Source: an uncultured Pseudomonadales bacterium
GTDB taxonomy: Bacteria; Patescibacteriota; Microgenomatia; UBA1400; PJMF01
Assembly: GCA_964650185.1 (NCBI GenBank)
Contig: CAZYRN010000001.1
Span: 46,284 to 110,283, forward strand
Reading direction: 5' to 3'
DNA length: 64,000 nucleotides
Positions 31,775 through 49,478 of this stretch are shown here, one piece after another (the stretch's first letter is position 1; each line of letters starts with the position of its first letter). The position numbers and the translations under genes were made by a program. The notes beneath the pieces were generated by a model. The model ran no database searches and was not told the DNA's origin. It saw only the letters and a program-made list of their open reading frames with translations.

Positions 31775-32962
31775 CTAATATTCAACAGTAGTCACATTAT
31801 TTACCACAGAAATCCAGGTTAAGCCTCGAGCCATGGGAATGTTGGTGCCTCGGCTATCGACGAATTGAATGGGGCTGGTGCGAGTTTTCTTACTCCAAGT
31901 TGCTTCTATCACTTCACCATTTTTGAAGATGAGAGCATCACCAGTACCAATGGTTTCATAGAGCATATGCTTCACTTCATTAATGGGACCTTTTTCAACA
32001 GTTTTTAAGACTACGACATTTTTAGCCATGATTTGTTTTTCCGAATTTTGATCAATGTGAGGCTCTCCAGCCATCTGGCGCAGATAACTGTTTGTTTCCG
32101 GGTCATACTCCCAAGAAACAGCATAGTCATTGTAACCACTCCAAAAGTCATAAGAGATGCTAGTGACGCTGCCGTCAGGCTGATCACCGTTTTCAAATGT
32201 CCAAGGAGTGAAACCGTCTTGCCACGCATCCCCGCCTACCATGTTAAAGCCGACTTTTCTCTCTGGTGAGACATTGGTCCAGCCTCTTTCCTCGCCAACT
32301 TCCCACAGTTTTTCAGTACTGGTCACCATGGTATGCTCAGTCGCGATAGTTTTGCCAGGGACTCGATTGTAATCACGCACAAAAGTTGGGTAACCAATGG
32401 AGAACTGGTTTAAGTCATTTTCACCTGCCCAGCCATAAGTATTGATTTGTCCTAAAGCATCTGATGGTCCTGGGACATTGGCACCGCCGACATGAGCATA
32501 CAGAGGCTGGTTAAAACCTGAGGCCCAGTCAACAAAATAGGTACGAGCAGATCTGATTGGAGCGAGAGTGGTATCAATTTTTTGCACATCGCAGTAGAAC
32601 ATCCCCATAAATCTAGTCACACCACCTTCAGCTACTGCTTCAAAAACGACATCTGCATCACCCAAGCCGGCTTGTGGTCGAGCTTCTGGATGATTTTCAA
32701 TCATCACAGCTAACGGCCGTCTTTTCTCCCAAGCTTCTCTTTCCACAGCGGTATAAAACTGTCCATTTAGCGGACACTCTTGATCTCTTGGTGCATTAGG
32801 ATCAATATCCAGCAAAGCACCAAGCAAAGTCTCTTCCTCAGTTTCACTGTTATCAATATTAGCTGTACCTTGCTGATCGCCTAAATAAGAAAAGGCACCA
32901 AATGATACCGCTGCTGAGACAATGTATAAGACTAATGCTAGTAGAAGATTTTTTCGTTTCAT
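31775..32962 (-). CDS. DUF3048-family secreted/lipoprotein-like protein (YerB-like)
   Basis: Start reassigned to the ATG at 32962, preceded by AAAGGAG. MKRKNLLLALVLYIVSAAV signal/anchor. Core AVMIENHPEARPQAGLGDADVVFEAVAEGGVTRF matches the DUF3048 signature. Confidence 0.55.
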   Translation of the reverse strand: MKRKNLLLALVLYIVSAAVSFGAFSYLGDQQGTANIDNSETEEETLLGALLDIDPNAPRDQECPLNGQFYTAVEREAWEKRRPLAVMIENHPEARPQAGLGDADVVFEAVAEGGVTRFMGMFYCDVQKIDTTLAPIRSARTYFVDWASGFNQPLYAHVGGANVPGPSDALGQINTYGWAGENDLNQFSIGYPTFVRDYNRVPGKTIATEHTMVTSTEKLWEVGEERGWTNVSPERKVGFNMVGGDAWQDGFTPWTFENGDQPDGSVTSISYDFWSGYNDYAVSWEYDPETNSYLRQMAGEPHIDQNSEKQIMAKNVVVLKTVEKGPINEVKHMLYETIGTGDALIFKNGEVIEATWSKKTRTSPIQFVDSRGTNIPMARGLTWISVVNNVTTVEY

Positions 32963-32999
32963 AATTAGGCCGCTCCTTTTGGCAATAGTAACAGTTTTA

Positions 33000-33281
33000 T
33001 CAGAGCTGAAAGTATAACGCAATTAGTATTCCAAAAACTACTAGAGATGCAACTATGGTCCGCCATAAATCACGCTTGATCTGTCTTGGTTCTTGAGACA
33101 ATAAGCCTATTACTGGACTTTCTTTGATAGCGTCTCGACTATTTGCAGCTGCTTTAATACTTTTTGGGGCTGATTTTTTCGAGCTGGAACTTTTTTTCTG
33201 TGGAGATAAGCTGTAACTAGTTTCCTCAAGTCTTCTCAATTGAGCAGCTAGTTTTTCTTCTTTAGTTCTTCTAATTCCCAT
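33000..33281 (-). CDS. Small basic membrane protein (hypothetical)
   Basis: 93 aa with a Lys/Ser-rich N-terminus and a single C-terminal TM (LWRTIVASLVVFGILIALYFQL). Confidence 0.3.
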   Translation of the reverse strand: MGIRRTKEEKLAAQLRRLEETSYSLSPQKKSSSSKKSAPKSIKAAANSRDAIKESPVIGLLSQEPRQIKRDLWRTIVASLVVFGILIALYFQL

Positions 33282-34993: not shown

Positions 34994-35884
34994 TTGTATA
35001 CTAATTGGAGTATGCAGCCATTTTTATACATTTACACTTTACATCGATCGCTGACATCCGGCGCCTCCTATCTGGGTGTTGTTAAAAATAAACTTTGGTT
35101 TAGTATCAGGTATTTCCTGATTAGTTTATCAATCTTAGGCATTATCTCAGGGGTATTCTTTGTTGACCGTGTCTGGCTACCCCTGAAAACCACGGCACAG
35201 GTGGAGTTGCTGAACTTAGCCCATTATTATCCGAGTGACATAATTGTTTCCTGGAACAATCAAACATTGCTTATTAATTCTGAAGCACCTATCCAGGTGC
35301 CATATCCCAAAAGCATGCCGCTGCAGGATTTAATACCTCATCATTTATTGACAATAACTGAGCCTGGTCGCTCAGCAGCCGACTTTGTTACTGAGTCAGG
35401 TAATAGTTCATTTCTAGTAGCCGACAGTCAGCACTTGTTCATCAATAATTTAAATGGACGCTGGCGACAGCTGCCATTAACTGAGATTTTATCTGAGCCA
35501 TTTACACTGACTGCTGATAACATCGACCAGCAGATTGGACAGCTCAATCAGCAGCTTAGTTGGTTTTTTAACGGATTTAGCTTGATAATCATCATTATTT
35601 ACCCAATTTATTTAATCAGCACTGTTTTTTGGCAAACTGTTATAGAGTCTATTTTGCTATATTTTGTTCTTAAAATAAACCATACTGCTCAAGAATACCT
35701 ACCTACTTTTAAAATCGCCCTACATATTGCTGTCACTGCCGCAATACTTCACGAAGTCACAGGTTATCTCTATCCCAACCATGGCTACCCAATTTTTAAT
35801 TTGACTTTCTGGTCGATAATGATCTTTATGCTCTGGTCACTGAATTATGCCCTTAAGACCGGCATGCTAGACGAGCGTGAGTAA
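34994..35884 (+). CDS. Hypothetical polytopic membrane protein
   Basis: 296 aa with an N-terminal anchor, an extracytoplasmic region and four C-terminal TM helices. Confidence 0.4.
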   Translation: MYTNWSMQPFLYIYTLHRSLTSGASYLGVVKNKLWFSIRYFLISLSILGIISGVFFVDRVWLPLKTTAQVELLNLAHYYPSDIIVSWNNQTLLINSEAPIQVPYPKSMPLQDLIPHHLLTITEPGRSAADFVTESGNSSFLVADSQHLFINNLNGRWRQLPLTEILSEPFTLTADNIDQQIGQLNQQLSWFFNGFSLIIIIIYPIYLISTVFWQTVIESILLYFVLKINHTAQEYLPTFKIALHIAVTAAILHEVTGYLYPNHGYPIFNLTFWSIMIFMLWSLNYALKTGMLDERE

Positions 35885-36289
35885 CAAACCTACTAAACCT
35901 AAAATAACCCAACAAGTATTGAGCAGCTGATATAAAATCGCCCCTTCATCTGCTCCCAGCCAACTAATATTTCTAAATAAAGGAGGTTCATATTCTTTCT
36001 GTGAAACTTGGTGCGTAATCCAATAAACTACCTCATATCCGCTTCTTATCACCAAAAAGATTAGTAAATGTCTCAAGATATTTAGCGGAGAAATAAAGTT
36101 AAATGCCACCGCAGAAACAAACCAAAAGGGAGCTAAGATCACCCCGTCTCCCCAAACAAAGATTCCCAGCCAGCTTAATCCAGGAGTATCGGTATAAAAC
36201 TGGTTTGATTTGGCAAATCTAAGTGAGAAATAAAAGATGATTAGAGCAAAAAGAGCGAGAAAAATTGATAATATATTTATGAGTGACAT
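35867..36289 (-). CDS. Hypothetical small polytopic membrane protein
   Basis: 140 aa with 4 predicted TM helices. It is the last gene of the minus-strand string 41873->35867. Confidence 0.4.
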   Translation of the reverse strand: MSLINILSIFLALFALIIFYFSLRFAKSNQFYTDTPGLSWLGIFVWGDGVILAPFWFVSAVAFNFISPLNILRHLLIFLVIRSGYEVVYWITHQVSQKEYEPPLFRNISWLGADEGAILYQLLNTCWVILGLVGLLLTLV

Positions 36290-36300
36290 TAAAGGTTGGT

Positions 36301-36687
36301 TTACTCTTCAATTGTTAACTGCTCATCAATCGCCGGAAATGGATATAAATCTTGAGCGGGATCAGCTCCTTTTAACTCAAGTTCTAATTCCTGGAGTCGT
36401 CTTCCCAGCTCCGTTGAGTCTAGCTGGGGAGATGGTGATGCCTGAGTTTCATCTTCAGGATTAATGATAGCGGGCAGATTGCGGTTTTTTGACGCCAACC
36501 AAATAACGCCAGATAAAATTAAAACAAAAGCTATTCCTGCTAAAATGAGTAATTTAGCATTAGCCTTTAGCTTACCCTTCAGACTGGCTGCTACGGCCGC
36601 TTCATCGAGATAACTTGAACTAACCGGTTGAAAGAGCGGCTCTTCGTTGGCAAATCTGGTTTGGTCGTCAATGTATTCTGATTTCAT
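36301..36687 (-). CDS. Hypothetical single-pass membrane protein
   Basis: 128 aa. Central TM (LLILAGIAFVLILSGVIWLA). Its start overlaps the upstream stop. Confidence 0.35.
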   Translation of the reverse strand: MKSEYIDDQTRFANEEPLFQPVSSSYLDEAAVAASLKGKLKANAKLLILAGIAFVLILSGVIWLASKNRNLPAIINPEDETQASPSPQLDSTELGRRLQELELELKGADPAQDLYPFPAIDEQLTIEE

Positions 36688-37529
36688 AGTGAAATTATTT
36701 CCGCTAAAAATGATCTGACTCTAGTTAGATTTGAATAGATTTCTGCCAAGTTGTCTTGAATCCGCCGATGAACCCCTCGGTAACCCTGATAGGTTGGGTC
36801 GTCAAAAGAACTTTCCACATCATCAAAAGCTAGCTCTACATTTGCCAAGTGCTGATCGACCTCATTAAAGGCTCGTTCGCGCTGAGATGCTTTTAAAGCT
36901 CCGCCCGCTGTCGCTAGCTCGCTGCGCATATCTTCACTCAGCACCTTTGTTTTGTCATAAATTGTCTGCAGCCGGCCGATCTCAATTAAAGATAAACCCT
37001 GATAAGCACTGTCCTCCAAAGTGGTATACATTGGTGTAAATTCAGCTGCCAAAGTAATGATTTGATCCTTGCTCAGTTCCGGTTCAAGCTTGGCTTGATG
37101 TGCCTCAAGCTGCTCTTGCAACTCATTTAAGTTATCTAAGCTGATCTCTTTATATTCGACATGAATACCTGGCTGATCATTTAAAGTCACTTTAATTAAC
37201 TGAAGATATGTCCAAAGCACCTTGCCTCGAGCTTGCATCGCCAGCTGAGTAGTTCTCACCGCATTTTCTAAGGCGTTGAGCGTCTGTAGCTGTTCGTACT
37301 GAGTTTGAGCTACTTGATACTGTTTTTCCGCCTGCTGATACTCTTCAATTTCTGAGCGGTAGCGAGTTTTTAGTTGTCTTATCTCATCAGCCGCTGTTTG
37401 TGAGTTATAAATCAGCTCAGATTGCGCCTGTACGGGTTGCGGAGTTGAAAAATGAATCCAGCCACTAACAGCCACTGTTAAGAGACAAAAACTAAAGAAG
37501 GCAGTGGCTTGGCTTAGATTATTTTTCAT
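36684..37529 (-). CDS. Secreted coiled-coil protein (hypothetical)
   Basis: Sec-type signal peptide (…AVSGWIHFSTPQPVQAQS) followed by Gln/Glu-rich heptad-like sequence. Confidence 0.4.
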   Translation of the reverse strand: MKNNLSQATAFFSFCLLTVAVSGWIHFSTPQPVQAQSELIYNSQTAADEIRQLKTRYRSEIEEYQQAEKQYQVAQTQYEQLQTLNALENAVRTTQLAMQARGKVLWTYLQLIKVTLNDQPGIHVEYKEISLDNLNELQEQLEAHQAKLEPELSKDQIITLAAEFTPMYTTLEDSAYQGLSLIEIGRLQTIYDKTKVLSEDMRSELATAGGALKASQRERAFNEVDQHLANVELAFDDVESSFDDPTYQGYRGVHRRIQDNLAEIYSNLTRVRSFLAEIISL

Positions 37530-37532
37530 TTA

Positions 37533-38249
37533 TTAAATATTTAACTCTCGATTACGGGCGAAAACAGTCGCTTCATACCATGATTCAAATGTCCCCGTAT
37601 CAAACCACTTTCCTTCAACAAAGGCCACATCCAGCTGTCCCTCTGCTAAATATAGGTTGTTTATGTCGGTAATCTCTAATTCTCCTCGATCTGATGGAGT
37701 GAGATTGCGAGCCTTCTCAACCACCGTGTTGTCATAAATATACAGGCCAGTCACTGCATAATCAGATTTGGGCTGTAATGGTTTCTCTTCAATCGAAAGA
37801 GCGCGCTGCTGGTCATCAAACTCTACCACGCCAAATCTTTCAGGATCTTCAACTTTTTTAGCAAAAACCCGGCCGCCTGATTTAAAACTTTGAATAGCTG
37901 GTGCAAAATCATCTTCAAACAGGTTATCGCCTAAAATCATCGTCACTGCATCATCACCAATAAAATCATCACCAATGAGAAATGCCTGAGCTAAACCTTT
38001 TGGCTCATCTTGAATTTCGTAGGTAAAATCACAACCAAACTCTTTACCGCTGCCTAATAGCTTCAGAAAATCACCCGCATGGTCTGGAGCAACAATAATT
38101 AAAATATCTTCAATGCCAGCTTTTATTAATGTTTCCAGCGGAAAATAAATCATCGGCTTGTTGTAAATTGGCAGCAGCTGCTTACTAGTCACTCTAGTTA
38201 AGGGCTTGAGTCGTGATCCTGAGCCGCCTGCTAAAATAATGCCTTTCAT
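37533..38249 (-). CDS. Sugar-phosphate nucleotidyltransferase (short RmlA/glucose-1-phosphate thymidylyltransferase-like)
   Basis: [38 protein letters not shown] (G-x-G-x-R nucleotide-binding signature). 238 aa. Confidence 0.8.
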
Positions 38250-38300
38250 ATGTTCCTTCCGGGCAAGCTAATAAATTTACTTAATTAAATGGCTGAACTT

Positions 38301-38558
38301 TTAGAGAGTAACGAGTACTAAAAGTACTCCTGCTAGTATACCAACTCCTAAATATTCCAGCACCACCTTTCGTGAAATTTGCTTGATGTTCACATGAAAG
38401 ATTATACCCCAGAGTATGTAAAACATAGCTATCGCTACCGAGATTAGCCGCTGCGAAGCTCGATCAGGCCAGGCTGCTAAAAATGCTAAAACACCTAGCA
38501 AGAGTACGACTACTAAGATTGAATATGACAGCTTATGTTTAGAAAATTCTCTCAGCAT
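38301..38558 (-). CDS. Small two-TM membrane protein (hypothetical)
   Basis: 85 aa with two hydrophobic helices. Lies 3 nt from the next gene. Confidence 0.35.
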   Translation of the reverse strand: MLREFSKHKLSYSILVVVLLLGVLAFLAAWPDRASQRLISVAIAMFYILWGIIFHVNIKQISRKVVLEYLGVGILAGVLLVLVTL

Positions 38559-38560
38559 AT

Positions 38561-39628
38561 TTAGCCTACAATTCCACCTTTAAAGAATACTACTAAAAAG
38601 GCCACTGTTAAAAATAAGATAATGTGCGCTAAGTTTCGACCCACCAGCCGAGTTGACTGGCGATTGCCAATGACAAATGTATCGTAGATTAAGGTCAAAA
38701 TGATCAACATGATGACGGCTAAAAAGAAGGCTTTAGTCAACTGAAGCGGGGTAAAGAGTGGTGGTGTTTCAATCTCACCAATAGGAACCAGCATGCTAGC
38801 TAAAACTCCCTGGGTCAGGACATTACTGATCGATGCGACCAGCTCTTCATCCGTCGCAGCTGTCTCTTCTCCACCCGCTGTTGCCTCAGGTTCATCATCA
38901 CCATTGGTTTCTAAAACTGCTAAGTCCTGAGCACCCGGTTTATCATCTATTAGCTGGTCAATTTCGGTAATAGTATTTACTGGTTCAGTCGCTTGAACAG
39001 CTCTGACTGCTGGCACCTCTGGCACGGTAGCCTGCCTGCCTTCTGGAGCACCAAACATCTGAACAACTAGTGTTGTCTCATACCCCTCCAAAACCCCATC
39101 AATCACAGCAATTCCAATTTCTGAATATTGCGGATTAACAATATTAGCCCGATGTGTCGGCGAGGCCATCCAAGCAGTCATCATGGCCGGAGTTTCGGAA
39201 AAATCTCTCGCCAAATTCTCACCAGCTACACGGTAAGAGTAACCAGCTTGTCTCATGAAGACCCAGGGTTCAGTTCCATCAGGTGCGGTGTGTGCCCAAT
39301 ACTGATCATTGAACATGTCCTGACCCTTTGCAATAGCTGCCGCTGTTAAGGCTTGATTAAGTGCTAACGGCGGTAATCCCATTTTAGATCTTTGATCATT
39401 GGTCGCCGCAATTACTTCCTTAGGTGTAATAGAGGAAGCAAAACCAAGAATTTTTTTTGATGGTCCAGATAGCCCAATAAACAAGTGAAGCAGGGCAACA
39501 AATCCGCCGGCTACTAACACTAATAGAAAAATAGACTCAGGATGAATTAACCGCGCCCGATGGTTATTAGATCGGCGGGGATGAAAGAGATGGGCAAAAA
39601 TATCTTGAAAGGTTCTCACGAACTCCAT
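38561..39628 (-). CDS. CAP/SCP/PR-1 domain protein, membrane anchored at both ends
   Basis: GENLARDFSETPAMMTAWMASPTHRANIVNPQYSEIGIAV (CAP signatures). N-terminal TM, acidic linker, C-terminal double TM. Confidence 0.7.
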   Translation of the reverse strand: MEFVRTFQDIFAHLFHPRRSNNHRARLIHPESIFLLVLVAGGFVALLHLFIGLSGPSKKILGFASSITPKEVIAATNDQRSKMGLPPLALNQALTAAAIAKGQDMFNDQYWAHTAPDGTEPWVFMRQAGYSYRVAGENLARDFSETPAMMTAWMASPTHRANIVNPQYSEIGIAVIDGVLEGYETTLVVQMFGAPEGRQATVPEVPAVRAVQATEPVNTITEIDQLIDDKPGAQDLAVLETNGDDEPEATAGGEETAATDEELVASISNVLTQGVLASMLVPIGEIETPPLFTPLQLTKAFFLAVIMLIILTLIYDTFVIGNRQSTRLVGRNLAHIILFLTVAFLVVFFKGGIVG

Positions 39629-39677
39629 TATGCAGTAATAATTCCCCTAAACTCAAGAGGATTATTTTTCAGCTAGC

Positions 39678-40655
39678 TTAAGGGCAGGTTAAGAGCCAGG
39701 CTTGAAGTGATATTGATATATTTTGGTCGAGATTGAAGGCGAGTAAAGCTGATTCTTGCTCAGGGAGTGTGGTTAACCATAAGTCTTGAAAAACAATTTG
39801 GTTTAAATTTCCATCTGCCTGAGTAACTTCATACAGCTGCGGCCGATCTTGAATTGATGAGGTAAAAACTGGTTGATGCCATGTTAAAGTTGAGTAAATG
39901 CCGTCATGAGTCAGATCAACAGTTATAGGAATTTTTTTAAACTTGATCTGATTAGCAGGACAATTATTAACTAAAACAGCTGTGTTTTTAGTCACTAGCT
40001 GCAGATTTTTTAACTCTACTCTGGTGGGGGATTGGTCATCAATGGTGTCACCGCTCCAAAAGATAAGATTTAATTTTGATTCTTGGTTATGAGCAGCCAA
40101 TTCAGCGATTTTTTCTTCATAGACTGATAAATCCAGCACCACATTCTTCCAGCCGGTTTGAAATTGACCATCTTCCCTTTTTTGTTTAGCCTCAGCAGCA
40201 GCTACATGAAAGATAGGCTGTGAGGATAACTTAACTTCAAAACCTGGCTGATCAAAACCGGGTAAATATTCTGTTGTGATCAAGTTATAGTCGAATGTCA
40301 GTAGCCAGTTGAGCTCTGCTACTTCGTACTGTTTAGTTTGATTTTGTAAATCGAGCAACTCATTTTCTAAAACTAGCTTATCTCGACTAGTCTCACTGGA
40401 GGTTTGAGAAATTTTTGTTTTCTCATCTGCAGGTGGCTGGCTAACTAATGGCAGCTCATTTTCATCCTCAAGTTCAATTTGGGGGTTTTTCTGCTGTTGT
40501 TGGTTTGTATCCATCCCCTTAACTGCTGGTTCCAGCGCGAGCTGTTTTAACTGGCTTTCTGTCTTGCTAAAACCTAACTGAAAAGAATCATCTGGCAAAC
40601 TTAACAGTCCGATTACCAGCCAGCTCCAGATGACTAGCCAGCTAGTTTTTCTCAT
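39678..40655 (-). CDS. Secreted/anchored hypothetical protein immediately downstream of sipW
   Basis: 325 aa. N-terminal signal anchor (WLVIWSWLVIGLLSLP). Overlaps the sipW stop by 4 nt. No recognisable domain. Confidence 0.4.
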   Translation of the reverse strand: MRKTSWLVIWSWLVIGLLSLPDDSFQLGFSKTESQLKQLALEPAVKGMDTNQQQQKNPQIELEDENELPLVSQPPADEKTKISQTSSETSRDKLVLENELLDLQNQTKQYEVAELNWLLTFDYNLITTEYLPGFDQPGFEVKLSSQPIFHVAAAEAKQKREDGQFQTGWKNVVLDLSVYEEKIAELAAHNQESKLNLIFWSGDTIDDQSPTRVELKNLQLVTKNTAVLVNNCPANQIKFKKIPITVDLTHDGIYSTLTWHQPVFTSSIQDRPQLYEVTQADGNLNQIVFQDLWLTTLPEQESALLAFNLDQNISISLQAWLLTCP

Positions 40656-41143
40656 TTTCTTCTAGCAAAACTCTCCACCAAAAATATGGCGGCAGGAATA
40701 AAGATTGCTGCCAATATACCATAGCCATTTTTTAGCTGCGCCAGCCACCAACCTACGTGGGGAATTAAGACTGTAACTTTACCCAAGACTGCGGAATTTA
40801 AAACAACTTCCGGTTCGTAATTTTGATTAGCATCACCCTTGGTAACATAGCTCTTTTCCTCTAAGTTTGGCGAAACTTTGTGTATTCGGTGGATGACCAA
40901 CTGCTCACCAGTTGCGGTCTGATATTTAAAAGCGATCACATCCCCAACTAAATATTCATCACTGGACTGAATAACAACCAAGCTCCCCATGGGCAAGGCT
41001 GGTTCCATTGACCCAGATTTGATTATCACCGGTTGATAGAGCTGCTGACCAACTGATGTCAATGGAACCAATAGCATTATGCTGACTAAAATCATTACTC
41101 CCAAAAGCATGTAGCTACAAATTTTAATGATCACAGACAGCAT
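40652..41143 (-). CDS. sipW: Signal peptidase I, SipW/ER-archaeal type
   Basis: N-terminal TM then IKSGSMEPALPMGSLVVI (the SGSMEP box of ER/SipW-type S26 peptidases) and GDVIAF. 163 aa. Confidence 0.8.
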   Translation of the reverse strand: MLSVIIKICSYMLLGVMILVSIMLLVPLTSVGQQLYQPVIIKSGSMEPALPMGSLVVIQSSDEYLVGDVIAFKYQTATGEQLVIHRIHKVSPNLEEKSYVTKGDANQNYEPEVVLNSAVLGKVTVLIPHVGWWLAQLKNGYGILAAIFIPAAIFLVESFARRK

Positions 41144-41171
41144 TGCTTTTTCTCCCTACCTCTTCCGTCAG

Positions 41172-41873
41172 TTAATAAGTAGTCTGTTGACCATAGAACT
41201 CAAAGTCGAGCTTCACAGTGCAATTCTGATACTCAATCCCAGCCTCTGGATCAAACTGCCAGGTAAAAAACAGCCCCTTGCCAGTACCATTAATTCCGCC
41301 AATTAAATCATCAGTTATCAACCCAGGTAGCACCGCCTCACCTGCCTCTAGATCAAACATCGCACCATTGTGAACCACATCCAAACCTGCAAATAACTCC
41401 ACCAATGTCAAGCCATCAGCATTGGTATCATAACTTGCTTCAAAGGTCGGCAGTAAGTTTTCTCCCTCATCCATGACGCCATTGGCATTGCGGTCATACC
41501 AGGCATCAATTAAATTAATCACTTCATCCAGATGTTTTTCGCCATAATAGATGCGATCTGTCATCGTCATCAAGACCGCATCAGCATCAATCTCACCGGT
41601 GTTTCTCACAAAAATTTGAGATTCAACCGTTTGCCCTGGCACCCAGTACTGAGAAGACGACCAGGTATTGGATGTGGTATCACTCCAATACTGAATTAAT
41701 GTATCAGCAACCTGATCTGAATTAGTGTCAGTGTCACTAATCTGGATCTGGAAAATACCCGCATAAAACTTATTTTCATCAGCAATTACCAGATCCGAGA
41801 AGATGGCATACCCATAGCCAATAGCAAAGATGCTAAGTAATAAGATTAATACTGAGAGCGAAAGTTTCTTCAT
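41172..41873 (-). CDS. TasA/camelysin-like (peptidase M73 family) secreted protein with SipW-cognate signal peptide
   Basis: Start set at ATG 41873, preceded by AAAGGAGGGG. MKKLSLSVLILLLSIFAIGYGYAIFSD...FYAGIFQIQ matches the SipW-dependent signal class (G-x-G-x-A-x-F-[SN]-D then F-x-[AS]-G-x-ϕ, ϕ = hydrophobic). IFVRNTGEIDADAVL matches the camelysin core. Confidence 0.7.
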   Translation of the reverse strand: MKKLSLSVLILLLSIFAIGYGYAIFSDLVIADENKFYAGIFQIQISDTDTNSDQVADTLIQYWSDTTSNTWSSSQYWVPGQTVESQIFVRNTGEIDADAVLMTMTDRIYYGEKHLDEVINLIDAWYDRNANGVMDEGENLLPTFEASYDTNADGLTLVELFAGLDVVHNGAMFDLEAGEAVLPGLITDDLIGGINGTGKGLFFTWQFDPEAGIEYQNCTVKLDFEFYGQQTTY

Positions 41874-41955
41874 TTTCTCCCCTCCTTTCAACTACAGCTT
41901 AGCTGGACATAGTTAAACTAAATGTAGGAAGAGCAGAGAGAAATGTGAAAGCTGG

Positions 41956-42303
41956 CTAAAACTCTTTCAGCAGCTCAGGTTTAACATTAAGATCTTGAAA
42001 TTGCTGCCGACGATACAACATGCCGATAATGGCATAAACAGCAATGTCGGTCCAAGTATCTTCAATTGATTCATTAGCTGGTTGATCCTGTGACATCAGT
42101 AAGTTTTTCAAACGTTGAGTTTTTTCCAAAATTCGCATGGAAATCCCCAATTCTTCAATCGAGAGAATGTTTTCTTTACCGTAATCTTTATGTTTTTTTA
42201 AAAAAACTTGCAGCAACTCATCGGTAATCTGAGCAAAAGCCTCATCAAGGGTTTTGGGTGATGAAGCAGAAACTGACTGAGATGATGATTGAGGCTGAGA
42301 CAT
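41956..42303 (-). CDS. Hypothetical small acidic protein (possibly all-alpha MazG-like NTP-pyrophosphohydrolase fold)
   Basis: 115 aa. KHKDYGKENIL...EELGISMRILEKTQRLKNLL...EDTWTDIAVYAIIGML. Weak resemblance only. Confidence 0.3.
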   Translation of the reverse strand: MSQPQSSSQSVSASSPKTLDEAFAQITDELLQVFLKKHKDYGKENILSIEELGISMRILEKTQRLKNLLMSQDQPANESIEDTWTDIAVYAIIGMLYRRQQFQDLNVKPELLKEF

Positions 42304-42360
42304 ATGATTCCTTTAAGTTATTAACTTTGGCAATATTGCTAATGATACACTAACTGCTAA

Positions 42361-42894
42361 ATGTGGGGACAGTATATTTTACTAGTTTTTCTGATTATTA
42401 TGGCGGGATTGATGGTGCGGCTGATGGTGCGGCTGTTGTTTCGCCTATATATTTCACTTCAAGGAGCTTTTTTTGCAGAAACGAGTGACACGCGCATTAA
42501 ACAATTTATGAGCCTAGTACCGCTCAAAAAAGGGATGATAGCAGCAGATCTTGGTTCTGGAGATGGTAGAATTTTAATCAAATTAGCCCAGAAAGCAAAT
42601 CTGACGGCGGTGGGTTATGAGATTGATCCTAAATTAGTTAAACTTTCCCGAGCCAAAATAGCAGAGGCAGGCTTAAGCTCAAGAATTACGATTAAGCAAC
42701 AAAGTTTTTGGCGCGCTGAGTTAGGAAACTTTGATCTAGTAACTGTTTACGGCGTGCAAGAGATGATGCCGCGACTTGAGAAAAAACTTTTGAAAGAACT
42801 TAAAAAGGGAGCAAGCATAGTGTCTGTTTACTTCAAATTTCCCAGTTGGATGGAAAAAAAGAGACTGGGAGATATTAGACTTTATCAAAAGTAA
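42361..42894 (+). CDS. Class I SAM-dependent methyltransferase (small)
   Basis: Motif I AADLGSGDGRILIKLA, with post-I acidic and motif II regions. 177 aa. Confidence 0.6.
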   Translation: MWGQYILLVFLIIMAGLMVRLMVRLLFRLYISLQGAFFAETSDTRIKQFMSLVPLKKGMIAADLGSGDGRILIKLAQKANLTAVGYEIDPKLVKLSRAKIAEAGLSSRITIKQQSFWRAELGNFDLVTVYGVQEMMPRLEKKLLKELKKGASIVSVYFKFPSWMEKKRLGDIRLYQK

Positions 42895-42907
42895 CCCAGC
42901 TGCATAA

Positions 42908-42936
42908 TTGCCTGATTGGGAGATTATGGGTATAAT
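42908..42936 (+). promoter_or_regulatory. Candidate promoter for tRNA-Glu (TTGCCT-N17-TATAAT)
   Basis: Hexamers with 17-nt spacing. The predicted TSS lies about 30 nt upstream of the tRNA 5' end. Confidence 0.35.
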
Positions 42937-42973
42937 TCAGTACTCAATCTAGTTTTGACATGCTAAAGATTTT

Positions 42974-43046
42974 GGCCCCATCGTCTAGTGGCCTAGGACA
43001 TCGCCCTCTCACGGCGAAAACGCGGGTTCGATTCCCGCTGGGGTCA
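42974..43046 (+). tRNA. tRNA-Glu (anticodon CUC), 3' CCA not encoded
   Basis: Cloverleaf drawn by hand. Acceptor GGCCCCA/TGGGGTC with G2·U71. D-arm GUCUAGUGGCCUAGGAC. Anticodon stem UCGCC/GGCGA with loop CU-CUC-AC. T-arm GCGGG-UUCGAUU-CCCGC. Discriminator A is followed by CAT. Near-identical in layout to E. coli tRNA-Glu. Confidence 0.9.
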
Positions 43047-43217
43047 CATACACGCATATACACGAACATACATTGATATACGTTTACATAGCTTCCTTCA
43101 TAATTTCGTCAATTTTTTTGAATAAATTTTTTATTAGTGACTAAACAGGCGTTGAGGAGGATGGAGACAGGAGTTTATTTCAATAAAGCTTTTAATGAAT
43201 ACAGATGAGTATTATTT

Positions 43218-44258
43218 ATGTATAATACCAGCTTCTTTATGTCACACGAATATACATCAGAGTATGCTAGAAAATATATAGAATCGACTCTAGCATCTCC
43301 ATACACAATCTACAAAAATAAAGTCATTGCAGATTTATGCACTGGCTTTCAATCTGTTTGGGATTTGGGTGGCAATGTTTCTGGACTAATTAGACAACCA
43401 GGTTCTTTGAGATTTCAATTAGAAAAAAAAGGCGTTGATTACAGATCTATTGATTTAGTCCCAGCCTACTTTAGCACTGTATTTGCTAAAAGTCTTGGAG
43501 TTGATGGATCTTCAATTTTCCCTAGCTTATTGGGAGTAGTTGGTGATATCCAGGAACTTCCTTTAGCATCTGATTCATTAGAAGTAGTTATTTCTGCAGA
43601 TGTTATTGAGCACATTCCTAATCCAAGTCAAGCAATATTAGAAATAAAAAGAGTGCTAAAACCAGGGGGAAAGGCAATCATTGTTGTTCCATCTTTATAT
43701 AAACTAGATGCTATTCACGCTGATCATGTTGAGGAAAAAAGATATTCGTCTCACGAAAATAAGCTGACCTTTGCAGAATGGCAAAAACTAATTGAAGGTA
43801 GTGGCCTAAGTATTGATATTGAACAATCAAGACCACTAGGTATCCTCTCTGGCTTATTATATGTAGCTTGGCTAGATGAGAGATTTGTTCCTCAAAAAGC
43901 TTCACAACGAGAAAAAGAGACATTCTCAAAAGAAGCAATTCTCTTCAAAAAAGTGAAAAATGTAGTATCCGCTCTAGATGCCGAATTTGACGAACTCCTG
44001 AGAGCAGATCAAGATCTCCCGCAAACACTGATTGATTTACTCAAATCTGGTGATATTTATGGACTATTAGACAAAATAAAAGAAATTGTCACTGCCAGAA
44101 TGGGAGAAACAGATCTAACAAACCTTGAAACTTTACTTGAAATTATAGCTGAAAATCATCTAAATCAGGAATCTCTTGTAAAAATACAAAATCTAGCAAA
44201 CAATCAAGGAAATCTTTTTCTTGGAAACTCTGCTCTATTTGTAGCTACAAATGAATAA
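43218..44258 (+). CDS. Class I SAM-dependent methyltransferase (Methyltransf_11-like) with C-terminal extension; AT-rich
   Basis: VIADLCTGFQSVWDLGGNVSG (motif I-like) and LEVVISADVIEHIPNPSQAILEIKRVLKPGGKAII (motifs II/III). 346 aa. Confidence 0.55.
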   Translation: MYNTSFFMSHEYTSEYARKYIESTLASPYTIYKNKVIADLCTGFQSVWDLGGNVSGLIRQPGSLRFQLEKKGVDYRSIDLVPAYFSTVFAKSLGVDGSSIFPSLLGVVGDIQELPLASDSLEVVISADVIEHIPNPSQAILEIKRVLKPGGKAIIVVPSLYKLDAIHADHVEEKRYSSHENKLTFAEWQKLIEGSGLSIDIEQSRPLGILSGLLYVAWLDERFVPQKASQREKETFSKEAILFKKVKNVVSALDAEFDELLRADQDLPQTLIDLLKSGDIYGLLDKIKEIVTARMGETDLTNLETLLEIIAENHLNQESLVKIQNLANNQGNLFLGNSALFVATNE

Positions 44259-44359
44259 AATCACTTTTGTCTTTTTAAATTTGGTAGCATCACATAACCT
44301 TAGTTCAATACCCTATGGGGATGTAATAAAGCCGAGAGCCTTTACATCTGCGTAAAAAA

Positions 44360-44376
44360 GGTCAAATAGTTTGACC
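44360..44376 (-). terminator. Rho-independent-type hairpin (GGTCAAA-tag-TTTGACC) followed by T6 on the minus strand
   Basis: 7-bp perfect stem, 3-nt loop, with a run of six A immediately 5' on the plus strand (T-tract on minus). Abuts the stop of the minus-strand small ORF 44362..44595. Confidence 0.4.
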
Positions 44377-44749
44377 AGATCCGAGATGATTTGGTTCGGT
44401 TTCCAAAGGTGTGGGGTCACCATTTTCGCATTTTTCATCAACAAGTGACTGGATTAGCTCGAAGGATGGGGATAAATTTGCTGGTTCGGATTTTTTGTCT
44501 TCTGATACAAGCAAGGTGTTGAGAAACGCTGTTGAATATCGAGAAACACTTTTTGAAGTAGCGCTTGCTGTTTTGGAAAATCTAATTTCTCCCACCTTCT
44601 CCAGCTAAAACATCCACAGTGAAATTCGCACTGTCCTCTTTGGGTCTAAAATAGCCGCCGCCATCTTCATTTAAGTCTATCACATGGATATCTACTAACT
44701 GGGCCTGGTCAGTGCTTTTTTTATCATCCTGAGCAATAATATATGGCTA

Positions 44750-45451
44750 ATGCTTAAATTTAATTATAACCTATTCCAACATTCTCTCGTTTCCAAAAAA
44801 CAATTGATCGTTGTATTACTAGCGGGGGACCTAATAATTTTTGTTTTTCATCTCCTCTTTAATCAGTATCAGTTTTTTCACTTTGATTTTGAGCAGAATT
44901 TACCCACTTATTATCAGTCATTTAAACTAATCTTTTTTGGCATATTCTTCTTGGCCATAAGTCTAAAATCTTTTCATAATAATATTACTAAATTTTTTAT
45001 GCTTCCTTTGGCTATGTTTTTATTTCTGCTTGGTCTGGATGAGTTGCTGCAAATTCACGAAAATATTTATCGCATCTTTACGTTCGTCGACTGGTTTCAT
45101 CCCAGTAAAATCGTGGCAGCATCCATGAAAATGGGCTATCGATCTTCGTTGTGGATCCTATATTACTTACCGCTACTCTTACTATTCGTATTCTGGAGCG
45201 GATACTGGATGAACTATTTTCAATCTCGTTTAAATAACAATTTTAGTTTATTTATGCTTAGTTTTATTTCATTTTTCACAATTATTATCACTGAAATCTT
45301 GAGTTCTACAGGAACGTATAGCGACGCTGTATATTTTTTGCTCGTGACTATAGAGGAAACAGCTGAAATGCTATTAGCTACATTTCTGATTCTAGTTGGC
45401 GTGCAGCTGCTCAAGTTCACCCAAGACTCACTTCATGAGACTAATAATTAG
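44750..45451 (+). CDS. Hypothetical polytopic membrane protein (AT-rich accessory gene)
   Basis: 233 aa with about 6 TM helices. No known motif. Confidence 0.4.
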   Translation: MLKFNYNLFQHSLVSKKQLIVVLLAGDLIIFVFHLLFNQYQFFHFDFEQNLPTYYQSFKLIFFGIFFLAISLKSFHNNITKFFMLPLAMFLFLLGLDELLQIHENIYRIFTFVDWFHPSKIVAASMKMGYRSSLWILYYLPLLLLFVFWSGYWMNYFQSRLNNNFSLFMLSFISFFTIIITEILSSTGTYSDAVYFLLVTIEETAEMLLATFLILVGVQLLKFTQDSLHETNN

Positions 45452-45880
45452 CCTAAACTATTTTAAGGTAGACTAATTCTGCTAGCAAAGATAAACCAAA
45501 TAATTAAGCCAATCAGATGAAAAATGGAAAAATTGGTCAAAAGTGACTTAATACCTTTTTTAGAGGGAAGATTTGGGGTTGAATTTGGGGGTGTGTGCAT
45601 TTGTAAATATTCTAGTAATAAAAAGCGGTGGTGTTAAAGAGCTGGAGGGAAAGCCATATCTGCACTATTTTGTTACAGTTATTGACATTTAATGGGCTTA
45701 TAATATTTAATTATTAGATAATTCTTATAAAATTTAAAACTAATCTGTTTTGATTAATAATCTTTGAGGAGCATTCGCATGTCAAATATCACAGCTAAAG
45801 AAATCCATCACCAAGAAACAGATAAACCTATTAAAAATTCCGAGAAAAGATCACGGCGTTAATACTCCAGAATAAACGCG

Positions 45881-46861
45881 GTGATTTATGGCGCCTTAAT
45901 TGCTGTAACTGCAGCTGCCGAATTTAATAATGCAATTCCTGCTCGTGCAGAGGATGCAACTCCAACTTCTACACCCACTCCTGGTGAGTCTGATCCAAGC
46001 TTAGTGGTTACTGAAGCTGCCAGAAATGCTGCAGAGACAGAGGTAGCTTATGAGAAGCTTCCGGAAACTACACCTTATAGGTGGGTTTCAGATGAAGTTA
46101 AAAATGAGCCCGGTCATGAAAGATTTTCTGGAGAACTTTATCAACTGCCAGATGGTAAACCACTTAAACCTGGGGATGTAATAAGAATTTCTGTATATGT
46201 TCCTAGTGATAGTCTTTTTGGTTTTGGAACTTTACAGAATGATGAGAATATATCTGCTTGGATTTCAGAGCAGAATATGCTCCCAGGCGAGACTCCGTCA
46301 CCGCTCTTAGCCGGAGCAACTCATGGCAGGTACCAGGAACTGCTCGTAGTTGTTGGTCCTGACGGAAAAATTACCTTTAATGTACAAACAGAAGCTGATG
46401 AAAGTCCTGGCTCATGTTTTGTGATTGTAAATGTATTAGGAATCGTTGATCTGAATACACCCGTTCCTCCTGTAGAGTCCACAGCTACGGCTGTGTTTGC
46501 TACAGCTACTCTTGCCCAAAATCCAGAACAAGACGAGCTCACTCAACCACCCAGCGATCAAGATGAACCAAGAAATCCCAACCCAACCCCAACTCCTCAG
46601 CCCGCAGATACTCCGGAGGCACCCCCTGAACCAGGTGCTGAAAGTGACATTGAGCTTGATGAAATTCCTTACCGAGGTGAAATGGATGAAGCAGGACTTA
46701 CAACTCTTCGTGAAAATATAACATCTGAGGAGTGGATTAGTATCACTGATGACAATTTAATTATTCTATGGTTGGGAACGATCGGTGCAGCAATTGCCCT
46801 GGCTTATTGGTCTTGGAAAGACGATGAGACCGGTAATGAAGACAGCCAGTCTGATAACTAA
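45881..46861 (+). CDS. Secreted acidic Pro/Thr-rich protein with C-terminal TM anchor. An in-frame upstream segment (45779-45859, with SD+ATG) is separated from it by TAA at 45860-45862
   Basis: The ORF begins mid signal-peptide (IYGALIAVTAAAEF..ARA/ED). PTSTPTPG and PNPTPTPQPADTPEAPPEPG low-complexity linkers. C-terminal TM ILWLGTIGAAIALAYW followed by an acidic tail. Confidence 0.4.
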   Translation: MIYGALIAVTAAAEFNNAIPARAEDATPTSTPTPGESDPSLVVTEAARNAAETEVAYEKLPETTPYRWVSDEVKNEPGHERFSGELYQLPDGKPLKPGDVIRISVYVPSDSLFGFGTLQNDENISAWISEQNMLPGETPSPLLAGATHGRYQELLVVVGPDGKITFNVQTEADESPGSCFVIVNVLGIVDLNTPVPPVESTATAVFATATLAQNPEQDELTQPPSDQDEPRNPNPTPTPQPADTPEAPPEPGAESDIELDEIPYRGEMDEAGLTTLRENITSEEWISITDDNLIILWLGTIGAAIALAYWSWKDDETGNEDSQSDN

Positions 46862-46866
46862 GGTCT

Positions 46867-47838
46867 TTGATCAACCTGAGGCGAAAATTAAATCAGTCTG
46901 CCATGTCTAAACCTGAATATTCTCCTTCCAGTCTAGATTGTCAAAAATGGGGATTAATTTTTAATTATCTCACTCAATCTCTTGGCATAAAAGTTGGCTT
47001 AACGATCTTGATAACTTGGCTGGCATTTGTCAACGAAGATCAATATTGGGAGACTGAAAATCTTAGCCTAGTTATTCCAGTTGCAGCCGAACTCACCGAT
47101 GATTTTGATAAAAATGGCAGTCTCCCAGCCACAAATACAGTCACTACCACTTCCCCAGACTTGCCCATAGAAAAAATATTATCAAGCCATGAGGGAGTTA
47201 TTGATAGTGATCAAGTTCATGAGCGTGGTTCATTTAATTCCATGTTCTATGGTATTGATCTAGCAAAACCACTAAATTTTGTTATTCCTCCAAGCATTAA
47301 CCCTCATGCTGATCAAGATATTGCAATTAATATTGATACTCCGTTTTCTTTAAAAGTAAACAGCTGGATTAAATTTAGAGATGAAATAATTAGGTTTAAT
47401 GAGTACTTGCGTAACAATGAGTACGCCATCACTGCTTCTGGACTTTATGGCGATCATTACTACCTAATTCACTCAGGTATAGTGGCTGATCCAAATATAG
47501 AATCTGGTTACCGCATCTATCCTGGAGAGTATCTAAGACATATGGGAGATGAAATTGTCGGTACACAACTTAAACTTGGGCAGATAGATTCAAATCAAGC
47601 GCTAAATACAGAACTTATCCTAACTGCGGTAGATGTAATCGATTTAAACAGCGAAGCATTTTGGGAAAGCTTTCAGCAAATAGATAGTGGACCACTTTTT
47701 ATCAACCCAGAGCTGCTTGGAATTAACATAAAGTATTTTGGCGAAAATTATATCAAGATAGTAACTTGTGATTTAAATGGTGATATTACAATCATTATCT
47801 ATGGGGTCAATCAAACCAAAGCAGATCAGTCCAGTTAA
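46867..47838 (+). CDS. Hypothetical protein (N-terminal anchor, 323 aa)
   Basis: Single N-terminal hydrophobic segment (VGLTILITWLAFV), then a soluble domain with no recognised motif. AT-rich. Confidence 0.4.
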   Translation: MINLRRKLNQSAMSKPEYSPSSLDCQKWGLIFNYLTQSLGIKVGLTILITWLAFVNEDQYWETENLSLVIPVAAELTDDFDKNGSLPATNTVTTTSPDLPIEKILSSHEGVIDSDQVHERGSFNSMFYGIDLAKPLNFVIPPSINPHADQDIAINIDTPFSLKVNSWIKFRDEIIRFNEYLRNNEYAITASGLYGDHYYLIHSGIVADPNIESGYRIYPGEYLRHMGDEIVGTQLKLGQIDSNQALNTELILTAVDVIDLNSEAFWESFQQIDSGPLFINPELLGINIKYFGENYIKIVTCDLNGDITIIIYGVNQTKADQSS

Positions 47839-47898
47839 CTGTTTTTTTAGTTTCTTTTTGATATACTAATTACATTACTCACATTCTAAAGGAGTGTC

Positions 47899-48441
47899 AT
47901 GCTAGCCTATCTCACTAGTCCTGAAGCAAAAAAGTACATAAGTCGCCTGGAGGAAGTTTTTTCCTCTCTGCCAAAGCTACCGCAAAATTTTATTGATTTT
48001 CTCGTTCGGGTCTTACCTTGGTTGGTAGCGCTGGGCGGAATTTTAAGTGCCTTGAGCGTGATTTCTTCCTTAAGATTAGCGCTTGGCATGACACCTAACC
48101 AAGAGCTGTGGAATGAAATAGTAAAAATTAGCCCAATTTATTACTATATTGGCGCTGCTGTTCAAGCAGGTGCGGCATTCCTTGCTTATCTAGCTTTTAA
48201 TCCACTCAAGGAGCAAAAGCTGGAAGGTTGGATCTATGTTTTTTGGACTAGCATACTTAGCCTTGTATCTACTGCTGCGGCTATTATTTTCGCCAGCGGT
48301 TCCATTGTTTGGTCAATTTTCTGGGTCTTAGTAGGCTGGTACCTGCTATTTCAGATTAAACCAGCTTATAATGGCGGAGCTGTTAAAGCTGATGCTGCGA
48401 CAAAACCAGCTGCAAAAAAGACCAAAAAGTCAGCCAAGTAA
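47899..48441 (+). CDS. Hypothetical membrane protein with Lys-rich tail
   Basis: 180 aa, 4 TM helices. AAGGAG RBS 8 nt upstream. C-terminal KPAAKKTKKSAK. Confidence 0.45.
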   Translation: MLAYLTSPEAKKYISRLEEVFSSLPKLPQNFIDFLVRVLPWLVALGGILSALSVISSLRLALGMTPNQELWNEIVKISPIYYYIGAAVQAGAAFLAYLAFNPLKEQKLEGWIYVFWTSILSLVSTAAAIIFASGSIVWSIFWVLVGWYLLFQIKPAYNGGAVKADAATKPAAKKTKKSAK

Positions 48442-48899: not shown

Positions 48900-49478
48900 T
48901 TATCGCAGTGGGACAGCAATCACTACAGTCGCCTGTTTTTGCAGCAGATCTAAAGTATAGAGAATAATCTCTTCGCGCTCGACTGACATGACAGCGCCGA
49001 GCTGTTCAGCACTGATGTATCTGGTTTCCACAACAGTGTAGCGATACCAACCGCCATTACTGGCTAATACATAGACCTCATGACCAAGTTTAGCCTGACT
49101 TAAATTTTGCAAGCTAAAATCACGATTCACACCTTGAATCACGACTGGCAGACCTCGGCCAATGCCAGTAGCTCCAGCAACTTGTCTAGCAGGCATATCT
49201 AAATTAAAGCCACTCAGCCAACTATTCTTATTTTTTTCCACCACCGTATCAATGCCAATTTCAGGGATTCTAACTCTGGTTACTTCAAGTCGGCGATCAA
49301 CAAATATGGTTTCGGTCTCTGGTGAAGCGAATGTTTGAACGGGATATTGATGAATGGTTAAACCCATTCCCACCCCTAAACCTAGACCCATCACCAACAC
49401 TAAATAAAATTTATTTCCAAAAATAACTTCAAGAGGTTTAGTGGCACTGATAAATAAGCGATAAAATGTGTTAAGCAT
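48900..49478 (-). CDS. Membrane-anchored protein with sortase-like beta-barrel pattern but without the canonical His/Cys/Arg triad (hypothetical)
   Basis: N-terminal TM. The C-terminal pattern VVIQGVNRDFSLQNL..KLGHEVYV...YRYTVVETRYI...EEIILYTLDLL..ATVVIAVPLR aligns to the SrtA beta4-beta8 signature elements. Val/Asn, Asp and Gln sit at the catalytic positions. Confidence 0.3.
   Translation of the reverse strand: MLNTFYRLFISATKPLEVIFGNKFYLVLVMGLGLGVGMGLTIHQYPVQTFASPETETIFVDRRLEVTRVRIPEIGIDTVVEKNKNSWLSGFNLDMPARQVAGATGIGRGLPVVIQGVNRDFSLQNLSQAKLGHEVYVLASNGGWYRYTVVETRYISAEQLGAVMSVEREEIILYTLDLLQKQATVVIAVPLR

Follow-up and report, generated by a model that had tools for sequence, protein, structure and literature searches.

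A TasA-superfamily protein encoded beside an ER-type signal peptidase in a Patescibacteria lineage: a candidate extracellular fibre module

Whether a secreted protein and the signal peptidase encoded next to it form the core of an extracellular fibre system is the question raised by a gene pair in contig CAZYRN010000001.1, positions 46,284 to 110,283 (the window, a stretch of 64,000 nucleotides (nt) analysed as a whole). The pair lies on the minus strand, at the positions given in a first-pass annotation of the sequence, and encodes a 233-amino-acid (aa) protein of the TasA/camelysin superfamily and a signal peptidase I of the endoplasmic reticulum (ER)/archaeal type. We consider it rather probable that the two genes are a functional core in which the peptidase matures the secreted subunit and the subunit builds an extracellular fibre. 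For an ultrasmall, probably host-dependent bacterium, a function of such a fibre in attachment or matrix formation is plausible.

The 233-aa protein begins with MKKLSLSVLILLLSIFAIGYGYAIFSDLVIADENKFYAGIFQIQ and contains the motif IFVRNTGEIDA, as the first-pass annotation had described. The length of 239 aa given there belongs to an open reading frame (ORF) started at the TTG at 41891; the protein is 233 aa long because a GGAGG Shine-Dalgarno sequence fixes its start at the ATG, and its homologues are likewise 233 aa in length. A word-indexed search yielded five homologue clusters at about 50% identity, and an exhaustive search of 1.8 billion representatives with a close-family profile retrieved 164 proteins, of which 98 full-length sequences were aligned for a wide family profile. 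Among these 98 relatives, 79 matched PF12389 (Peptidase_M73), 67 matched TIGR04088 (SipW-cognate signal) and 47 matched the TasA model. Compared with the sequences of the PDB, the wide profile reached TasA (8AUR and 5OF1, both with an expect value (E) of 3e-10) and the archaeal AbpX (E 1e-3), whereas the close-family profile found nothing meaningful. Because the 98 sequences had been chosen with a profile containing the window protein, a leave-out hidden Markov model (HMM) was run, built from the 80 most distant family members with the window protein and its 17 closest relatives excluded. The window protein scored 143.8 bits over residues 5-238 of the 239-aa, TTG-started form, against 7.8 bits for the best of the other window ORFs of at least 40 aa. 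The resemblance to the TasA family is, by these sequence comparisons, far beyond chance, and the profiles, not direct matches to existing models, identify the 233-aa protein as a homologue of TasA/camelysin-family proteins. A second TasA-like gene was not found in the window.

Regarding the fold, the AlphaFold model computed from the 98-sequence alignment reached a predicted local distance difference test (pLDDT) of 93.6 and a predicted template modelling (pTM) score of 0.82. A Foldseek comparison of this model with the PDB placed the TasA fibre form (8AUR_A) at the top (E 4e-8, probability 1.0, template modelling (TM) score 0.48), which was also the sole match with E below 0.001; the matches that followed were other donor-strand pilins. 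The protein is thus predicted to have the TasA jelly-roll fold, the feature by which the first-pass annotation had proposed to judge its assignment.

The N-terminus follows the TasA signal class as had been proposed: in the family alignment GYGYA/IFSD of the window protein stands opposite GTWA/AFND of TasA (slash, cleavage site), and under the leave-out HMM the signal and first strand of the family align with residues 5-50 of the 239-aa form. Residues 1-23 are predicted to be the signal peptide, cleaved within GYA/IFSD after Ala23, and residues from about 24 to 44 are a candidate donor strand. The donor strand of TasA itself comprises residues 28-38 and makes hydrophobic contacts through F29, I32 and F39 (PMC9674648), to which F25, L28 and F36 of the window protein correspond; N34 and F36 are invariant within the subfamily. 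Significant matches to this class-specific motif were absent from the N-termini of all other ORFs in the window. The N-terminus of the DUF3048 protein, VSFGAFSYLGDQQ, is weakly similar to the SipW-cognate motif, with a non-significant E of 0.03-0.05 among 263 ORFs.

Inserted into the jelly-roll of the window protein is a calcium-loop region that spans residues 127-160. A regular-expression search for the canonical EF-hand loop of 12 residues (pattern D-x-[DNS]-x-[DNSG]-G-x-x-[DENQST]-x-x-[ED]) matched residues 127-138, DRNANGVMDEGE; a second loop at residues 149-160, DTNADGLTLVEL, is one residue short of this pattern. In the AlphaFold model a helix follows each loop (residues 141-148 and 157-164). 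The close-family profile matches, at its positions 124-156, the SdrD_B calcium-binding repeats of giant surface proteins, and EF-hand proteins are among the PDB matches of the wide profile; Pfam EF-hand models did not match the window protein itself. Among the 98 relatives, a set biased towards the loop because the query profile includes it, 30 have canonical EF-hand-type loops, so that the insertion is not confined to this lineage. The mature protein is strongly acidic (isoelectric point (pI) 4.05; Asp+Glu 17%, Lys+Arg 3%), which together with the EF-hand-type loop or loops suggests that calcium may stabilise the subunit or the fibre.

In the mechanism that we propose, the 233-aa precursor would be exported by the Sec pathway and cut by the peptidase at about Ala23/Ile24. 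The freed N-terminal strand (IFSDLVIADENKFYAG...) would then enter the beta-sheet groove of the next subunit, and donor-strand complementation, as in TasA, AbpA and AbpX, would give an acidic, calcium-stabilised extracellular fibre, which the 325-aa protein encoded after the peptidase may cap, nucleate or decorate.

The enzyme to which the cleavage would fall, a protein of 163 aa, belongs to the ER/SipW type and not to the housekeeping LepB type, the distinction on which the first-pass annotation had staked its proposal. It scored 91.2 bits (E 6e-26) with TIGR02228 for the archaeal/ER type (cut-off 51.85), whereas 27 bits with TIGR02227 for the bacterial LepB type (cut-off 47) and 75 bits with NF046067 for Bacillus SipW (cut-off 190) both fell short; it is therefore an ER/SipW-type enzyme, yet not an equivalog of Bacillus SipW. 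Its only sequence matches in the PDB were human SEC11A and SEC11C, with whose SGSMEP, HRV and KGDNN its SGS45MEP (the box already noted in the first pass), H85-R and GD104AN align. Ser45, His85 and Asp104 are invariant across 10 peptidase orthologues, and the KR-type box D was not found in the peptidase. These three residues are candidate catalytic residues, forming Ser-His-Asp instead of a Ser-Lys dyad. Hydrophobic segments lie at both ends of the enzyme (residues 1-35 and 137-161). We infer that it matures the neighbouring TasA-like precursor.

The pairing of the two genes was judged in loci L005-L014, L016, L018 and L020 and in two further loci (by gene size and position, the P0018 locus also giving a weak Peptidase_S24 match), whereas L024 and L025 were reached blind, via CAP homologues on long contigs. 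The loci come from metagenome-assembled genomes labelled Patescibacteria group, Candidatus Paceibacterota or Pacebacteria (NCBI phylum Minisyncoccota). Records of L008, L009, L013 and L014 are titled 'uncultured Pseudomonadales bacterium'; this label looks wrong, because the gene content matches that of Patescibacteria loci. In every related locus examined the peptidase gene directly follows the TasA-like gene. L005-L013, whose TasA-like proteins are 50-56% identical to that of the window, show the order DUF1599, TasA-like, peptidase, a gene for about 300-350 aa, CAP and 85-aa as far as their contigs reach (L010 stops inside the third last of these, the gene for about 300-350 aa, and L006 at the 85-aa gene). 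The longer contigs continue with the 281-aa and 128-aa genes, and those of L005, L008, L009, L011 and L012 also with RRF and RseP. Identity to the window proteins in L005-L013 was about 59% for CAP, about 53% for the TasA-like protein, about 35% for the peptidase and 21-31% for the 325-aa protein. In all close relatives, too, the TasA-like gene is directly preceded by the DUF1599 gene (63-71% identity), which has no evident link to a fibre.

In more distant loci the genes after the peptidase change. L016/L022 carry an fn3 protein, a TasA-like protein (218 aa), the peptidase, an 898-aa LTD/Ig protein, a 447-aa fn3 protein, a second TasA-like protein (214 aa), CAP, 85-aa and RmlA. The two TasA-like paralogues of L016 (6001..6657 and 11348..11992 in that locus) flank the peptidase and accessory genes and recall the major/minor pair TasA/CalY. 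L020 has TasA-like, peptidase, a 1257-aa LTD protein, a 498-aa fn3 protein and CAP; in L014 peptidase and CAP have no gene between them. Of the two loci reached blind, L024 shows TasA-like, peptidase, a 637-aa protein, a 483-aa fn3 protein, an ATP-binding cassette (ABC) transporter and then CAP onward, and L025 TasA-like, peptidase, a 1358-aa LTD protein, a 454-aa protein and CAP onward. From the distant and blind-reached loci it therefore follows that the TasA-like/peptidase pair is constant and the slot after the peptidase highly variable. CAP follows the variable slot in all loci examined, the 85-aa gene always stands immediately after CAP, and CAP, 85-aa, RmlA and the genes on to RRF, RseP, DUF3048 and SecDF form a fixed backbone, from which RmlA is missing in L005 and L008-L012.

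This backbone bears on an alternative that we regard as possible, if on balance rather unlikely: the ER-type enzyme could be the general, perhaps the sole, signal peptidase I of the organism, its adjacency to the TasA-like gene being an inherited gene order. No LepB-type gene lies within the window, although 64 kb cannot decide between a dedicated and a general enzyme; the score with the SipW equivalog model is far below its cut-off; and gene order is kept lineage-wide down to RRF, RseP and DUF3048. Because the whole region, housekeeping genes included, keeps its order, adjacency within the clade is weak evidence for the pairing. The argument rests instead on adjacency that persists between loci with different upstream flanks and a different variable slot: in L016, L020, L024 and L025 both the flank upstream of the pair and the genes behind the peptidase have changed, yet the two genes remain neighbours. 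TasA-superfamily proteins have moreover been reported as partners of a TIGR02228 peptidase in Bacillus, other bacteria and archaea, and the TasA-like protein is the only one of the window with the class-specific N-terminal motif.

The 325-aa protein in the variable slot has a short hydrophobic N-terminus, a conserved C-terminal part of about 220 aa and, in many orthologues, a Pro/Ser-rich linker; positional orthologues share 21-31% identity, and the word-indexed search found a single homologue cluster. In the large proteins that L016, L020 and L025 encode at this position, its family profile matches the middle portion (L016_898, E 2e-15; L020_1257, E 6e-15; L025_1358, E 6e-23). The large slot proteins of the relatives have 637-1358 aa with LTD and Ig-like domains, and because the profile matches these same-position LTD/Ig proteins the 325-aa protein appears to be a large surface protein in shortened form. 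It is probably an accessory surface component. The first-pass annotation had likened it to TapA, as a possible anchor or nucleator, and this analogy found no support: the family had no significant match in Pfam or among PDB sequences, hhalign gave a probability of 3.5% against the TasA family, and with N-terminal-motif HMMs the 325-aa protein came lowest of 17 sequences, without a donor-strand motif. Among four large accessory proteins of the relatives, one (L016_898) showed a weak TasA-like donor-strand start of 7.6 bits, which is a lead only.

Four relatives (L016, L020, L024 and L025) encode in addition proteins of 447-498 aa with an ordinary signal peptide, a TasA-like domain, an fn3 domain and a C-terminal hydrophobic segment. 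Their TasA-like domain matches positions 66-202 of the TasA-family profile (E 4e-9 to 9e-13), which correspond to the jelly-roll without signal and donor strand, so these proteins are possible membrane-anchored acceptor or base subunits. In the window, a 1592-aa surface protein with Big_13, Big_3_3 and fn3 domains has a C-terminal part of about 235 aa that is homologous to the fn3-plus-anchor tail of the TasA-domain proteins of the relatives. This tail looks like a shared surface-anchoring module.

A wider reading would make the pair the remnant of a surface-fibre organelle shared across the lineage, encoded in the core genome of Pacebacteria-like Patescibacteria and used by them as the principal way to attach to hosts or surfaces. 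The full organelle would comprise a calcium-binding TasA-type subunit, its dedicated ER-type peptidase, a very large LTD/Ig-domain tip or adhesin protein and a membrane-anchored base, the last being the protein with a TasA-like domain lacking the donor strand, an fn3 domain and a transmembrane segment. In the clade of the window the organelle would be minimised: its adhesin would have been reduced to 325 aa, and its base would be gone. We hold this extension to be doubtful.

Several observations weigh against the fibre reading itself. The TasA-domain-fn3 gene is absent from the clade of the window, so that a fibre would here be without the membrane-anchored protein that relatives have and that might hold it on the cell. 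A TapA-like nucleator or other anchor subunit is not recognisable there either. Identity and fold of the 233-aa protein are established, whereas cleavage, polymerisation, the role of calcium and that of the 325-aa protein are all inferred; the quality of the structural model hinges on the 98-sequence alignment, a model from five close homologues having been discarded at a pLDDT of 51.5. The direct model matches expected by the first-pass annotation did not appear, and it was the profile and the leave-out HMM that upheld the family assignment. PF12389 scored 15.6 bits with the window protein alone (cut-off 22.5; E 0.014, residues 8-54 only), and the 233-aa form gave no PF12389 match at E of 0.001 or less. 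TIGR04090 (BsaA family), the sole NCBIfam model touched directly by the window protein, scored 19.5 bits (cut-off 60; E 6e-4) over residues 69-97, which cover the WxPG...RNTGEIDA core. TIGR04088 (cut-off 19 bits) had no match to the window protein at E of 1 or less, whereas the Patescibacteria relative P0013 passes it (21.7 bits) and the L020 protein falls slightly short (18.1 bits). Because the window protein lies below both thresholds, surveys with PF12389 and TIGR04088 would under-count this clade. The limited weight of adjacency within the clade belongs on the same side.

These gaps leave some room for a protein that does not polymerise but stays a monomer, secreted or associated with the wall (such as a calcium-binding surface protein or a protease like camelysin), and is merely matured by the peptidase. 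Polymerisation of the 233-aa protein is a prediction, the family name Peptidase_M73 derives from camelysin, recognisable anchor and nucleator genes are missing in the clade, and TasA itself is stable as a monomer (PMC9674648). We nevertheless find a monomer unlikely: neither HExxH nor another metalloprotease motif occurs in the 233-aa protein or in the window, the structural model of the protein is matched best by TasA in its fibre form and next by other donor-strand pilins, and the hydrophobic donor-strand positions are retained, with N34 and F36 invariant.

The features of the locus are listed in Table 1. From 41873 down to 35867 the minus strand carries nine co-directional ORFs, or ten with the upstream DUF1599 gene, at intergenic gaps of at most 51 nt and with 4-nt overlaps at two junctions. 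The TasA-like and peptidase genes are separated by 28 nt; the stop of the peptidase gene and the start of the 325-aa gene overlap by 4 nt, as noted in the first pass, and by this arrangement the 325-aa gene is read as translationally coupled to the peptidase gene. Base composition of the region is similar to that of the remaining window, and scans for promoters and terminators gave results at chance level only.

Table 1. Coordinates of the features discussed; positions refer to the window except for those of the related loci in the last row.
Feature	Position	Strand	Remarks
233-aa TasA/camelysin-superfamily secreted protein	41172..41873	-	702 nt
GGAGG Shine-Dalgarno sequence of the 233-aa gene	41881..41885	-	7 nt upstream of the ATG at 41873
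Coding part for the calcium-loop insertion of the 233-aa protein	41393..41495	-	
ER/archaeal (SipW-type) signal peptidase I, 163 aa	40652..41143	-	
325-aa fast-evolving exported protein	39678..40655	-	
CAP/YkwD-domain protein, 355 aa, membrane-anchored	38561..39628	-	
85-aa membrane protein	38301..38558	-	three hydrophobic segments
RmlA-like nucleotidyltransferase (glucose-1-phosphate thymidylyltransferase), cytoplasmic	37533..38249	-	TIGR01207, E 4e-96
281-aa protein	36684..37529	-	
128-aa protein	36301..36687	-	
140-aa protein	35867..36289	-	
DUF1599 ('nucleotide modification associated domain 1') gene	41956..42303	-	directly upstream of the TasA-like gene
DUF3048 protein	31775..33022	-	
1592-aa surface protein	53249..58027	-	Big_13, Big_3_3, fn3
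C-terminal tail of the 1592-aa protein	53258..53962	-	about 235 aa
Sortase-like gene	48900..49478	-	
Three ORFs without family match	45881..48441	+	326, 323 and 180 aa
tRNA gene	42974..43046	+	
Low-GC stretch	42000..46000		
TasA-domain-fn3 proteins of relatives	L016 9934..11277; L020 12062..13558; L024 4732..6183; L025 6600..7964		447-498 aa

The CAP domain of the 355-aa protein was matched by PF00188 with 64.4 bits (gathering threshold 21.1; E 2e-17), and by the YkwD-family model TIGR02909 with E 4e-32, below the 171-bit cut-off of that model. Hydrophobic segments at residues 27-56 and 263-355 agree with the anchoring at both ends that had been proposed, and the protein has more than 3000 homologues. 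The first-pass annotation had taken the whole array down to 35867 for a secretome cluster; membrane and secreted proteins are indeed present, but the RmlA-like enzyme is cytoplasmic and the block continues in synteny into RRF and RseP, for which reasons co-function of the downstream genes is not shown. Membership of the CAP and 85-aa proteins in a fibre system is unproven. That all nine or ten co-directional genes form one surface or secretome apparatus is improbable: the tight packing, the recurrence of CAP, 85-aa and RmlA downstream of the module even in distant loci (RmlA not in L005 and L008-L012) and the dTDP-sugars that RmlA could provide for glycosylation of surface proteins speak for it, whereas RmlA is cytoplasmic and absent from the block in those same loci, synteny runs unchanged into the housekeeping genes RRF, RseP, DUF3048 and SecDF, an ABC transporter stands between module and CAP in L024, and CAP homologues number thousands where few TasA-like homologues are detectable.

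Elsewhere in the window, a sortase-like gene (26.5 bits with the Pfam Sortase model, cut-off 26.6) adjoins three ORFs of the opposite strand without family match; when all window ORFs were searched in a simple way for C-terminal sorting signals of the LPXTG type, none was found. A tRNA gene lies beside a low-GC stretch (0.35-0.38, compared with about 0.42 elsewhere), and the near-identical strain L004 has different genes beyond a 177-aa methyltransferase, including a phage-type GP3_package protein. The stretch may, on these grounds, be a variable island.

A TasA-superfamily subunit with a TIGR02228-type peptidase is a known kind of module, found here in a little-studied lineage of the Patescibacteria. 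Compared with TasA/SipW of Bacillus subtilis (tapA-sipW-tasA; PDB 5OF1 and 8AUR), the identity of the window protein to TasA in structural alignments is about 12-16%, the gene order is subunit, peptidase, accessory protein, a TapA homologue is lacking, the EF-hand-type calcium-loop insertion is present in the window protein and not in TasA, the peptidase is no SipW equivalog (75 versus 190 bits) and the host belongs to the Patescibacteria. BsaA of Clostridium perfringens (TIGR04090), annotated as a SipW-dependent biofilm matrix protein, shares only the core strand pair. TasA polymerises by donor-strand exchange through residues 28-38 (PMC9674648), and AbpX by a calcium-dependent donor-strand mechanism, TIGR02228 peptidases being encoded beside abpX genes (preprint 10.64898/2026.01.04.697558). 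AbpA and AbpX are distant from the window protein in sequence; AbpX binds calcium at the interface of donor strand and groove, whereas the window protein has candidate EF-hand-type loops in its insertion, and ten membrane helices are reported for the peptidases associated with AbpX, as opposed to the two hydrophobic segments of the window peptidase. With the SdrD B-repeats and EF-hands the loop DRNANGVMDEGE shares its pattern, but the window protein has a single loop-helix pair set within a jelly-roll. The system had been called apparently undescribed, which is too strong: Wang et al. 2022 noted that homologues of PF12389 can readily be found among Patescibacteria (PMC9245690). Beyond that remark, an incomplete literature search found nothing on the architecture of the locus or on the calcium-loop subfamily in this lineage.

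The outcome is an annotation and a hypothesis rather than a new principle. It extends the pairing of TasA with an ER-type peptidase, known from Firmicutes and archaea, to a specific lineage of the Patescibacteria, in which all related loci sampled have the TasA-like/peptidase module at one and the same genomic position. Little is known about the way in which ultrasmall Patescibacteria attach to hosts and surfaces, and type IV pili have been the usual candidate. For attachment or the formation of a matrix, a TasA-type module would be a second candidate that can be tested.

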